NCBI GenBank assembly: GCA_039961895.1
Contig: JABRVU010000014.1
Span: forward strand, 19,019-83,018
Origin: Phycisphaerae bacterium
GTDB taxonomy: Bacteria > Planctomycetota > Phycisphaerae > UBA1845 > PWPN01
DNA length: 64,000 nt
Direction: 5' to 3'
Below the pieces are notes generated by a model, which saw nothing but the letters and a program-made list of their open reading frames with translations, did not search any database and had not been told where the DNA came from. The position numbers and the translations under genes were made by a program. Positions 50,625 through 53,988 of the stretch are shown in pieces. Each line of letters starts with the position of its first letter. Positions within the stretch are counted from its first letter, which is position 1.

Positions 50625-50831
50625 GTGTCCGAAGGCGCGACCGACAAGAGCACCGCGAAGGCCCAGCCGGACCTGAAGTTCCGGCTCGCGGCCGTCCGCG
50701 ATCGGTGCGCCGTCCTGCGAGGCCGCAAGCCCGCCGCCAAGGACGACGGCACCGCCTGGCCGCGCGACCTCAACGCCACCGGCCAAGATGGCACCTGGGG
50801 CAACGACCCCGTGGAGGTCCGGGATGAGTGA
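50625..50831 (+). CDS. Hypothetical small protein
   Basis: GTG start preceded by GGAGGTG. Overlaps the next gene by 8 nt. Confidence 0.35.
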   Translation: MSEGATDKSTAKAQPDLKFRLAAVRDRCAVLRGRKPAAKDDGTAWPRDLNATGQDGTWGNDPVEVRDE

Positions 50832-53800
50832 CCGGCTCACCGAGGCGGTCGCCCGCGCCCGGGACCTGGTCGCGGAGCTCGCGCCCGCGCTGGTCGACAA
50901 GGGCATCTGGGGCTCGCCCATGGGCAAGACCCGGATCGCCGACCGCATCGCGGCCGAGATCCCCGAGCACAAGGTCTACGTCGAGCCTTTCGCCGGCGGG
51001 GCCCAGGTGCTGTTCGCCAAGGAGCCGTCGGAGGTGGAGGTCGTCTCCGACCTCGACCCCGAGATCGCCTTCGCCTTCAAGTTCGCCAAGAGCATCACCG
51101 CCGACCAGCTCGAGCGGCTGCGCCGCAAGAAGTGGGTCGGTGACAAGGAGCACTTCAAGAAGCTCGTCGACGCCGGGGTGCCCGACGACGACCTCGAGCG
51201 CTTCTACCGCTTCGCCTACCTCAGCCGGTTCTCGTTCAACAAGCTGCGGCGCGGCACCATGCCGGACAAGAACGTGGGCGCCGGTTCCCGCTTCGTCGAG
51301 CGGCTCGAGCAGCTCGCCCCGCGCCTCAAGAAGGTCCGGGTCCGCTCCTCCGACTACGAGAAGGTCATCGACGAGTTCGACGGCCCCGACACGTTCTTCT
51401 TCCTCGACCCGCCGTACGCCGGCTACGACGCCGACACCCGCGTCGGCGCCGGTCACAAGGACTGGGACGAGGAGCGCTTCGCCAAGGTGCTCCGTCGCAT
51501 CAAGGGGCAGTTCCTCTGCACCTACGGCACGCGCGGCTCGGCCGACCTCTTCAAGGGGTTCATGGTCCGCCGCTGGCGACATACCTCGGGCGTCGGCACC
51601 TCGCAGGGGAACGGCCCGCGCCAGGGCGTGACCCTGGTCGCCACCAACTACGACCCCGCCAAGGCGACGCGCTTCCAGGCGCCGGTCGAGAAGACCATCT
51701 GGGGCTCGCCGGCCGGCAAGAAGCGGCTCGCCGATCGCCTGGCCGGGCTCCTGCCCGCGCACAAGGCCTACGTCGAGCCGTTCGCCGGCAGCGCCGCGGT
51801 CCTGTTCGCCAAGGAACCCACCGAGTACGACGTGATCAACGACGCCGACCCGGAGATCGTCGAGGCCTACCGGCTTATCAAGCGCCTCAAGCCCGAGCAG
51901 GTGGCGCGGCTGCGCAAGATGACCTGGACCGGCAACGAGGCGACCTTCAAGCGCCTGTTCGACGCCCGGCCCAAGGACGACGTCGAGAAGCTGCACCGGT
52001 TCCTGTACGTCACCCACTTCTCCTACGGGAAGCTGCGCGGCCGGTCCTTCAGCCCCTCGGGCGAGGGCATCGAAGCCGCGACCGTCGATCGCGTCGAGAA
52101 GTTCGGCCCGCGCCTGAAGAACGTCCGCATCCACTGCGGCGACTACGAGCGCGTCGTCCGCAAGTACGACGGCAAGGACACCGCCTTCTACCTGGACCCG
52201 CCGTACCCCGGCTACAACGTGGACGTCGGCGAGTCGGACTTCGACGAGGCGCGCTTCCTCGCGCTGCTCAAGTCCATCAAGGGCAAGTTCCTCGTGACCT
52301 ACGGGACGCGGGGCGAGCTGCCCGCGCGCTTCGAGAAGGAGGGGTTCCGGGTCAAGCGCATCCGGCCCAGCCGGACCATCGGCTCCATGCGCGGCGTCGG
52401 CGGGCCCAAGGTGCTCACGACGCTCCTCGTCTCGAACTACGACCTCGTCGAGAAGAGCCTCACCGAGGCGCTCGGCGACGACTGGACGCTCGACGACGAC
52501 GTCGAGAAGCGCCAGCCGTTCGGCACCTTCGGCGGCTCGTTCCACTACGCCAAGCGCATCGTCCCGCTCATCCCCGAGCACGCCACCTACGTCGAGCCGT
52601 TCGCCGGCGCGGCGGCCGTGCTCTACGCCAAGGAGCCCTCGGCCAAAGAGGTGATCGCGGATCTCGACGACGACGTGGTGTTCCTGCACCGCTCGATCAA
52701 GTCGATGACCGTCGAGACGGTCGAGAAGCTGCGTCGCTTCGAGTGGACCTGCACCAAGGAGAGCTTCGAGAAGGCCCGCGACCTCACGCCGCGCGGCGAC
52801 CTCGACCGGTTCTACAAGCTGGTGTTCGTCCGGACGCACGCCCGGGACTGCCGTCCCGACGGCACGCACCCGGCGCGCAACCACCTCGGCAGCACGACCG
52901 ACCCGGAGAAGTTCCTCGGCGCGGCCGAGCGCCTGAAGGACGTGACCATCCTCAAGCAGGACTACCGGAAGACCATCGAGCGCTTCGACGGCCCCGAGAC
53001 CTTCTTCTTCGTGGACCCGCCCTACCCGGGCGAGTGGTACGACAAGGACGCGGCGGTGGACGTCGGCGAGTTCGTCGAGGCTCTCGCCAAGGTCCGCGGC
53101 CGCTTCATCGCGGTCCTGAACGACAGCCCCGAGAACACCGCCGCCTTCAAGCGCGTCGGCCAGGTCTTCCGGCTCAAGGTCCGCGAGGCGTCGGGCACCG
53201 GCGGGGCGAAGACGGCCTCGCGCCTGTTCTGCGCCAACTTCAAGATCACCAAGTCCGAGGACGTCGAGGTCCTCGAGCACGTCGAGCTCGCGGACGCCGA
53301 CAAGGCCGCGTGGACCCGGGCGTTCGTCAACGACCTGCCCGACAGCGCGTTCCTGTACGTCGAGCCCGGCGGCGCGACGGACGACGCCGGCAAGACCGTG
53401 CCCCGGAACCTGCGCCACTTCCCGGTGCGCGGGGCCGACGGAAAGGTCGACCTCCCGCACCTGCGCAACGCCATCGCGCGCATCCCGCAGAGCCGCATCC
53501 CCGGCCTTACCGAGGACGACCTCCTCGGGCTGCAGGAGCGGGCGCGGGAGCTGCTCGCCGGCGCCACGAGGAAGAACGACGTCTTCGCCAAGTCCATCCC
53601 GCTCATCAAGGGCACGGACCCGGCGGACGAGCGGTACGTGCTCGGCGTGGTGCTCGAGCCCGAGGTGGTCGACGCCCAGGGCGACATCTACTCGCCGGAC
53701 GAGGTCCGCCAGGCCGCTCATCGCTTCATGGAGGAGTTCGGCGGGCTGGGCCTCATGCACCGCATGCGGGTCAACGGCCAGGTGAAGGTGCTGGAGAGCT

Positions 53801-53988
53801 ACCTCGCGCCGGTCGATTTCGCCGTGGGCGAGACGACCGTCCGCAAGGGCACCTGGCTGCTCGCGGTCCGCATCCTCTCCGACGAGCTCTGGGCCGAGGT
53901 GAAGGACGGGAAGCTCACCGGCTTCTCCATCGGCGGCTCCGCTCGCCGCGTGCCCGAGGCCGCCGAGCAACAGAAGGAGGCCGCATGA
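50824..53988 (+). CDS. Three tandem Dam-like (D12-class) N6-adenine DNA methyltransferase modules fused to a C-terminal XkdF-like prohead protease domain
   Basis: Three modules, each carrying G(S/T)xxGKxRxAxxI, then YVEPFAG(G/S/A)A, then DPPY. DPPY codons are at 51406-51417, 52195-52206 and 53014-53025. The C-terminus has [13 protein letters not shown]...RHFPV...[12 protein letters not shown] and [34 protein letters not shown] (XkdF/S78-like). The gene sits between the MuF-like protein and the scaffold/capsid genes. Confidence 0.8.

Follow-up and report, generated by a model that had tools for sequence, protein, structure and literature searches.

The window analyzed here, a stretch of 64,000 nucleotides (nt) from contig JABRVU010000014.1 of a Phycisphaerae bacterium assembly (GCA_039961895.1), holds a contractile-tail-type prophage. 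Its head genes include an open reading frame (ORF) encoding five units in one chain: three modules of DNA methyltransferase (M1, M2, and M3), a short unit termed module L, and an XkdF-type putative prohead serine protease domain, i.e., M1-M2-M3-L-XkdF. As argued below, the last of these units probably serves to bring the preceding ones into the phage head.

The fusion gene and its place among the head genes

The fusion gene (50824–53988, plus strand) is a single uninterrupted ORF of 1054 codons followed by a stop codon, so its length in amino acids (aa) is 1054 and not 1055, as given in a preliminary description made from the letters of the window. The G+C content at third codon positions (GC3) is 0.94–1.00 across all 300-nt blocks of the ORF, and a homologue showing 98% identity (P0001) is also 1054 aa long; therefore, the frameshift artefact that the preliminary description had considered is excluded, and the frame is free of internal stop codons along its whole length. 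A chimeric ORF is likewise ruled out by the even coding signal together with the many independent full-length homologues. The start codon is most likely ATG 50824, which is preceded by GGAGG 8 nt upstream and agrees with the lengths of the homologues; the alternative in-frame ATG at 50788 is less likely. A small, putatively coding ORF of 68 aa (50625..50831, plus strand, GC3 0.81) ends at the fusion gene, its stop overlapping the start of the latter (ATGAGTGA).

Three stretches of the protein are covered by the Pfam family MethyltransfD12 (PF02086; E 3.6e-53, 181.3 bits vs. a cut-off of 22). By the limits of the hidden Markov model (HMM), these D12 modules span aa 26–278 for M1 (50899..51657), aa 290–541 for M2 (51691..52446), and aa 563–808 for M3 (52510..53247), all on the plus strand. 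In each of them, motif I, responsible for the binding of S-adenosylmethionine (SAM) and represented by EPFAG at aa 54, 318, and 591, respectively, precedes the catalytic motif IV, DPPY (aa 195, 458, and 731). The three complete units with intact SAM-binding and DPPY motifs announced in the preliminary description were thus all found in place, and the spacing of the DPPY codons reported there, 789 and 819 nt, is exact (nt 51406, 52195, and 53014). The divergence of the modules was likewise confirmed by pairwise alignment, with an identity of 48% between M1 and M2 and 38% between M1 and M3.

The AlphaFold2 (AF2) model of the window protein contains three methyltransferase domains with a predicted local distance difference test score (pLDDT) of ~85–93, joined by low-confidence linkers; the predicted template modeling score of 0.36 corresponds to no fixed arrangement between the domains. 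In the AF2 model of the homologue P0033, the M2/M3-type modules match Dam of E. coli, DpnM, Dam of phage T4, and Mcbe1 (Foldseek E ~1e-11, template modeling score 0.65–0.76), and the nearest PDB relatives of the modules are Mcbe1, DpnM, and Dam, all at low identity. Judging from the profile, the motifs, and the fold, M1–M3 can be regarded as putative N6-adenine DNA methyltransferases of the Dam type (D12, alpha-type), their domain identities being close to certain. Neither sequence, structure, nor site statistics singled out the target sequences of the modules. As a separate observation, the 6-bp palindromes GAGCTC, CAGCTG, CCGCGG, GTCGAC, and TCGCGA are strongly under-represented in the prophage (z from −5 to −7.7, counted over the prophage only, i.e., 17259–36734 and 46801–64000).

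The C-terminal part of the protein (aa 916–1054; 53569..53985, plus strand) was assigned to the XkdF type of putative prohead serine proteases. Peptidase_S78_2 (PF14550) was detected at aa 928–1042 when the whole fusion protein was scanned (E 1.3e-30, 106.4 bits vs. a cut-off of 24) and scored slightly higher with the domain alone (E 2.7e-32, 111.9 bits), and the match to phrog_3017, annotated as head maturation protease, has E 4e-36. Residues D950, G953, D954, H979, S992, KGTW 1008–1011, and S1035 are invariant in the comparison with the XkdF proteins of Lactococcus phage 50901 and Pseudomonas phage PAK_P3; H979, S1035, D950, D954, and S992 are also invariant in 52 cargo-bearing relatives. 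With these conserved His and Ser residues, the C-terminal XkdF/S78-type domain suspected earlier is well supported, and H979 and S1035 are candidate catalytic residues, their catalytic role being assumed.

The XkdF-only proteins of the two phages just mentioned, with or without a scaffold part (L001, 3878–4930, in Lactococcus phage 50901 and L002, 2919–3335, in PAK_P3), bear the label “DNA methyltransferase” in GenBank/RefSeq, and the same label is attached to phrog_1530. On XkdF-only phage proteins, this label is an annotation error exposed by the present comparison; perhaps it is a name transferred from methyltransferase–XkdF fusions.

Module L, overlooked in the preliminary description, sits between M3 and XkdF and comprises ~90 aa (aa 827–915; 53302..53568, plus strand), with a motif starting NDLPDSAF. 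It had no Pfam or PHROG match, even at E ≤ 10, and its pLDDT in the AF2 model is 63–87. This unit is variable in position: with M denoting a methyltransferase module and X the XkdF domain, the arrangements MMLMX, MMMLX, MMLX, and MLX occur among the relatives, and module L also accompanies XkdF in proteins lacking a methyltransferase, e.g., P0141 and P0254.

The gene for the portal protein (47135..48964, plus strand; Phage_portal E 2.9e-17) and that for a MuF-like minor head protein (49461..50573, plus strand) lie upstream of the fusion gene. The latter protein matches Phage_Mu_F below the cut-off (E 0.0016), phrog_13868 with E 2.5e-128, and phrog_115, a minor head protein, with E 8.8e-9. Downstream are the genes for a scaffold-like protein (53985..54854, plus strand; phrog_13975 E 3.2e-46) and an HK97-fold major capsid protein (54899..55834, plus strand; Phage_capsid E 1.3e-12). 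This order agrees with the earlier statement that the fusion occupies the slot of the head-maturation protease, after the MuF-like gene and before those for the scaffold and the major capsid protein, with the MuF call being sub-threshold in Pfam and supported by PHROG. No second protease gene was found between the portal and the capsid protein in Pfam and PHROG scans of the window proteins. Between the portal and MuF, there is also a small zinc-ribbon-like protein with paired CxxC motifs (48888–49208), which corresponds to phrog_13998 and is conserved across the lineage, and a second small zinc-ribbon-like ORF with paired CxxC motifs (~49211–49516).

The fusion gene and the scaffold gene are closely connected: the TGA of the former overlaps the ATG of the latter (ATGA), and a Shine–Dalgarno sequence, AAGGAGG, precedes the scaffold start. 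The scaffold-like protein consists of long predicted helices in the P0033 model. Its N-terminus (53985–54110) matches positions 5–33 of phrog_3017, i.e., the segment preceding XkdF in canonical protease–scaffold proteins; the same motif precedes XkdF in gp34 of Lactococcus phage 50901, and a related segment opens gp4 of PAK_P3. The scaffold frame is open upstream of the scaffold ATG, and in-frame extension of the protease into the scaffold orthologue was documented in P0007, P0016, P0033, L005, L066, and 7 of the 146 cluster representatives surveyed (see below). The scaffold-fused cases differ in module number, so they do not represent one shared error. Such protease–scaffold fusions would tie the cargo physically to an internal component of the procapsid. 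A programmed −1 frameshift from XkdF into the scaffold was considered and rejected: the last 486 nt contain no X XXY YYZ heptamer, and the scaffold gene has its own strong Shine–Dalgarno sequence along with the ATGA overlap.

Relatives, module types, and interchangeable cargo

A word-indexed protein search with the fusion protein returned 412 matches at E ≤ 1e-10. Among the top 120 of these 412, the architecture MMX prevails (57 proteins), followed by MMLMX (18), MMMLX and MMMX (16 each), and MMLX (7), with a few proteins carrying an added DNA ligase domain; methyltransferase and DNA ligase occur together in the sister proteins P0114-6. Gene order was compared over a set of 110 loci, 80 of them from species-representative genomes and 30 from IMG/VR. 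On contigs that are long enough, the terminase gene is followed by those for portal, p106, MuF, [M]n(L)X, scaffold, and capsid protein and by two conserved downstream genes. The search for homologous fusions, proposed in the preliminary description, thus yielded more than 400 relatives and 110 syntenic loci. The spacing of MuF and the fusion gene is not constant: it is ~0.2 kb in the window and reaches ~5 kb in L028, with further variation in L043 and other loci, pointing to a second hot spot of insertion within the head module.

The records of the genome loci are mostly titled Myxococcota (or Deltaproteobacteria/Myxococcales), while a minority comes from bins of metagenome-assembled genomes (MAGs) under other taxon names. 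A single module is present in cultured strains of Myxococcus, Corallococcus, and Citreicoccus as well as in Archangium MAGs, and two modules are found in Polyangiaceae MAGs. The structural proteins of the window all have very high-scoring matches among PHROGs of “unknown function”, with phrog_13242 standing for the fusion itself; the lineage is already contained in public prophage sets and is only unnamed there. The fusion was absent from cultured phages in a collection of 50,697 records, where the 571 matching records represent single-Dam proteins only, at less than 60% identity (~30% among the matches listed). No description of a methyltransferase–XkdF fusion was found in the literature searched, including a 2026 survey of myxobacterial viruses. 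The preliminary remark that no triple-Dam/protease fusion had been described holds for that literature; at the same time, more than 400 homologues are public, PHROGs contains the family as phrog_13242, and the general class of proteins was predicted in 2017.

Altogether, 397 modules from the relatives were classified against M1, M2, and M3 of the window. Three-module proteins invariably show the order M1-M2-M3 (60/60), two-module proteins are either M2-M3 or M1-M2, and single modules are mostly of the M2 type, which is the most frequent single-module form in the Myxococcus-type relatives. Of the 397 modules, 392 retain DPPY and 390 retain motif I; by type, DPPY is found in 78/78 M1-type and 136/137 M3-type modules. 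The retention of the motifs and the fixed M1-M2-M3 order at one to three modules per protein therefore suggest that each module is maintained as a working unit. M1, M2, and M3 appear to be conserved orthologous types, each evidently under purifying selection, that are combined in differing numbers; the existence of three types would fit three different specificities.

The XkdF domain is found far beyond the methyltransferase fusions. A HMMER search with this domain against 1.84 billion cluster representatives gave 6388 matches at E ≤ 1e-3, 3414 at E ≤ 1e-10, and 379 at E ≤ 1e-30, and the 146 nearest new XkdF representatives were surveyed for cargo, with Pfam scans of 125 of these. In 125 of the 146, XkdF ends no more than 25 aa from the C-terminus. 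N-terminal extensions reach at least 150 aa in 116/146 and at least 400 aa in 64/146, the longest being ~2060 aa in proteins of up to 2190 aa. By the module HMM, D12 modules are present in only 32 of the 146 proteins. The N-terminal cargo recognized by Pfam among the 125 scanned members comprises MethyltransfD12 (24 members), InPase (22), ATP-dependent DNA ligase (9), 2H phosphoesterase (3), Tad3 (3), and an intein (1).

At the loci L110-L112, the scaffold and capsid genes are as in the window, and a ligase or a cargo of no recognized family replaces the methyltransferases. Taken together with the cargo survey, these loci indicate that XkdF in this clade anchors, from the C-terminus, cargo that can be exchanged and that is in large part of the counter-defence or DNA-repair type. 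Tad3, a phage protein, inhibits ThsB of the Thoeris system (PMC13402655). Iyer et al. 2017 (PMC5512222) include InPase, 2H, and adenine methylase among the domains of phage polyvalent proteins, for which packaging and injection were predicted. Among the XkdF-anchored proteins, P0166 (2190 aa) combines an intein (Hint and LAGLIDADG), a Tad3 domain, and a DNA ligase, and many other N-terminal extensions of 150–1000 aa are without any Pfam match. A LigD-type phosphoesterase suspected by eye in L110 and P0085 was not confirmed by Pfam.

An invariant Lys residue precedes every unit of the fusions, including the unrelated L and XkdF units, in the context hydrophobic-(E/A/D)-K-(T/A/S/G/R). In particular, V-E-K-T stands before IWGSP of the M1/M2 modules (157/158), L/V-E-K-A before QPFG of the M3 modules (60/60), K-A-(Q/A)-W before module L (27/27), and F-A-K-S before IPLIKG of XkdF (46/48). 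The junction lysines of the window protein (K26, K290, K562, K827, and K923) are situated within or beside the low-pLDDT linkers, and the loose pattern occurs seven times in the fusion vs. 1.8 ± 1.3 times in shuffled sequences. The N-terminus of the capsid protein carries a conserved LEK/A at residues 10–13, which matches the pattern, and this N-terminal motif is conserved in ~50 loci. Cleavage after Lys by the XkdF protease can be predicted from this pattern, albeit speculatively.

The rest of the prophage and its flanks

Apart from the head genes, the prophage encodes a tail sheath, a tail tube, and a head–tail adaptor, a large serine recombinase (14677–16329, minus strand), the large terminase (35298–36734), a helix-turn-helix regulator with an ImmA-like peptidase, a helicase, a primase, and a PD-(D/E)XK nuclease. 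A short tyrosine-recombinase-like ORF of 226 aa (34588–35271, minus strand; Phage_integrase E 2.4e-26) is located just 5′ of the large terminase gene. A heavy-metal efflux cluster of ~9.3–9.7 kb (36739–46432, minus strand) separates the terminase gene from the portal gene within the prophage. It consists of two cation diffusion facilitator (CDF) transporters, a resistance–nodulation–division (RND) pump, a membrane-fusion protein, an outer-membrane factor, and an ArsR regulator; at this place, only a gap of 1–3 kb is seen in relatives. A second metal-efflux set (4275–14271) adjoins the serine recombinase and comprises an RND pump, a CusB-like fusion protein with a heavy-metal-binding domain, an outer-membrane factor, and, in addition, a histidine kinase and a sigma-54 response regulator. 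A segment of lower GC content (57–58%) at 26–3676, perhaps an islet of the defence or mobile kind, has genes for an AAA_11/AAA_12 helicase, an ADP-ribosylglycohydrolase, and an HNH/ORF6C protein.

The preliminary description had also connected a Com-like protein encoded at 20947 with the methyltransferases by analogy to the Com/mom pair of phage Mu. This connection was not sustained: the ORF in question (20947–21171) scores 17.8 bits with Zn_ribbon_Com vs. a cut-off of 22.9, and it belongs to the early region, 30 kb upstream of the fusion gene and not adjacent to it. No Mom-family match was obtained among ~50 window ORFs scanned against Pfam, the scan of the window being not exhaustive.

The protease as a possible cargo carrier

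The explanation held here to be modestly probable is that the fusion is an XkdF head-maturation protease, which brings methyltransferase cargo into the head and then into the next host, where it would serve as an anti-restriction agent. Three independently folded Dam-type enzymes and module L would be strung on flexible linkers before XkdF, the C-terminal anchor. The prohead protease would assemble within the procapsid beside the scaffold and the capsid protein, and the cargo would thereby be built into the head. There, the protease probably cuts the linkers at the hydrophobic-(E/A/D)-Lys junctions; the released methyltransferases would remain with the DNA, enter the next host together with it, and methylate the incoming genome at up to three kinds of sites ahead of cutting by host restriction. 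Progeny DNA may also be methylated before or during packaging.

The encapsidation, cleavage, ejection, catalytic activity, and anti-restriction role that we infer here differ in strength. Encapsidation of the cargo is quite probable in view of the gene position, the scaffold fusions, and the cargo pattern; ejection followed by protective methylation is somewhat doubtful. The delivery of methyltransferases into proheads, proposed in the preliminary description, accordingly gains comparative support from the order conserved over the 110 loci, the in-frame scaffold extensions, and the other kinds of cargo in the same position, and it stays an inference. In addition, counter-defence cargo from a late structural operon makes most sense if carried into the next cell.

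A number of points weigh against this explanation. Prohead proteases usually do not persist beyond maturation but are degraded and lost, and a folded cargo of ~90 kDa would have to stay in the head and later unfold to pass the tail; for methyltransferases, late cytoplasmic action on the progeny DNA would be enough for protection. The XkdF domain of the window protein is poorly modelled (AF2 pLDDT 33–61), and a profile search found no solved XkdF structure, so the protease activity stays “putative”, as in Pfam. The Lys of the three paralogous methyltransferase modules could be a feature of the D12 fold inherited by duplication. The prophage shows only a mild shortage of GATC (151 sites) and CATG (99 sites), with z ~−2.9. 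Lastly, the suggestion that the scaffold N-terminal motif complements the XkdF fold with a strand, which came from the position of this motif before XkdF in Lactococcus phage 50901 and phrog_3017, gained no support, as the AF2 model of the natural fusion P0033 left this region disordered (pLDDT ~30) where the alignment is shallow.

The main rival, unlikely on the whole and still to be taken seriously, is a late methyltransferase polyprotein that is never packaged: XkdF would release itself in the cytoplasm, and the enzymes would methylate replicated phage DNA before packaging, as orphan methyltransferases of phages classically do for self-protection; the fusion would only subject the three enzymes to late-operon expression. 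Cytoplasmic orphan Dam-type enzymes are common in phages, as illustrated by the 571 phage records with single Dam homologues, and the flexible linkers with the conserved Lys motif fit self-processing. However, a polyprotein of this kind leaves unexplained why the methyltransferases are N-terminal to the protease in one ORF in nearly every recovered locus and why some of the polypeptides are extended into the scaffold. It also does not account for Tad3, InPase, 2H, and ligase in the same position, since synthesis from the late operon only would be too late for those.

The positional and scaffold-fusion evidence would also speak for packaged enzymes acting only in or at the capsid, i.e., modifying DNA during packaging or controlling packaging without delivery to the next host; a precedent for such control is the Dam methylation that governs pac cleavage in phage P1. 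This version is improbable: the SAM supply and the turnover of enzymes in a capsid being filled are doubtful, and Tad3, InPase, and 2H cargo would have no obvious role inside the capsid. An assembly or annotation artefact joining separate genes retains practically no probability given the uniform coding signal and the same architecture in 60 three-module proteins, more than 400 family matches, and 110 loci from many assemblies, the separate MM and X ORFs of locus L019 lying on a contig where many other genes are broken and a read error is likely.

A wider version of the cargo-carrier explanation can be offered only tentatively. According to it, XkdF proteases would be a general programmable vehicle for capsid loading: cargo at their N-terminus would become part of the procapsid, be set free by cleavage after the Lys junction, and reach the next host by ejection. 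In the lineage sampled (mostly prophages of Myxococcota), a combinatorial set of one to three Dam-type enzymes with distinct specificities would pre-emptively methylate the incoming genome and thereby set the host range; in sister phages, the vehicle would carry Thoeris inhibitors, pyrophosphatases, 2H phosphoesterases, or DNA ligases.

Known systems resemble the fusion in part. Lactococcus phage 50901 gp34 and PAK_P3 gp3 share with it a homologous XkdF domain, the same invariant Asp, His, and Ser residues, and a gene position between the portal and the capsid protein, but they have little or nothing before XkdF, whereas the N-terminus of the window protein is cargo. In the Lactococcus phage, a single chain runs from “VSYVDKAANK” through XkdF into the scaffold; in the window, the motif opens a separate scaffold gene. 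Several D12 domains per chain are also known from M.FokI, which has two of them, one for each strand of its asymmetric site, and is encoded alongside a restriction enzyme. Unlike in M.FokI, each module type of the present family also occurs alone or paired, and there is no endonuclease partner among the adjacent head-assembly genes. In phage T4, internal proteins enter the prohead, undergo trimming by its protease, and leave the head on ejection of the DNA, an anti-restriction role being known for IPI*; there, a short N-terminal targeting peptide is carried by separate proteins, whereas the cargo of the fusion is covalently joined to the protease itself.

The closest precedent in concept is provided by the polyvalent proteins, which were predicted to be packaged and injected with DNA; some of them carry a C-terminal virion-maturation peptidase, and adenine methylase is a hub domain among them (Iyer et al. 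2017, PMC5512222). Both this concept and the predictions of that study are computational. As in polyvalent proteins, the five units of the fusion are joined in one chain encoded within the head module; a peptidase is predicted to release the domains of polyvalent proteins, and XkdF would be its counterpart here. Unlike usual polyvalent proteins, the fusion is composed largely of like modules (three paralogous D12/Dam enzymes, with module L and a peptidase), more disparate activities being seen among its sister proteins, which combine methyltransferase with DNA ligase or carry InPase, 2H, or Tad3; it is devoid of the zincin metallopeptidase and the SNF2 helicase–methylase dyad, and its anchor is the phage’s own XkdF protease in the canonical gene slot. 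The “assemblin-like” peptidase of polyvalent proteins is always C-terminal (PMC5512222). It may correspond to PF14550; a later paper by the same group describes XkdF as unrelated to the SH superfamily.

In the summary given in PMC5512222, DarB of phage P1 is a methyltransferase-containing head component protecting the incoming DNA in cis against type I restriction. The fusion resembles it in that a methyltransferase is proposed as head cargo protecting incoming DNA. However, DarB is a methylase–helicase dyad of another methyltransferase class and is loaded via DarA/Hdf, whereas the fusion would be loaded via the prohead protease. No SF2 (SWI2/SNF2) helicase domain was detected in the fusion by Pfam and PHROG scans, and it is not a member of the DarB family.

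Overall, the family to which the fusion belongs is large, unnamed, and distributed largely in prophages of Myxococcota; its triple architecture occurs elsewhere too, and the concept had been put forward before. Still, the combinatorial methyltransferase modules together with the pattern of the protease as a cargo carrier make it a clear and testable case. If the cargo is truly encapsidated, the protease of head maturation is at the same time a carrier that delivers counter-defence enzymes. A simple criterion would then be available for recognizing packaged anti-defence proteins across thousands of phage genomes, given the 3414 relatives of XkdF at E ≤ 1e-10 and the long N-terminal extensions of most of the nearest ones, and there would be a natural handle for putting engineered proteins into capsids. 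The combinations of one, two, or three modules drawn from three conserved types offer a tractable test of co-delivered methylation vs. methylation in the producer cell as a protection against restriction.

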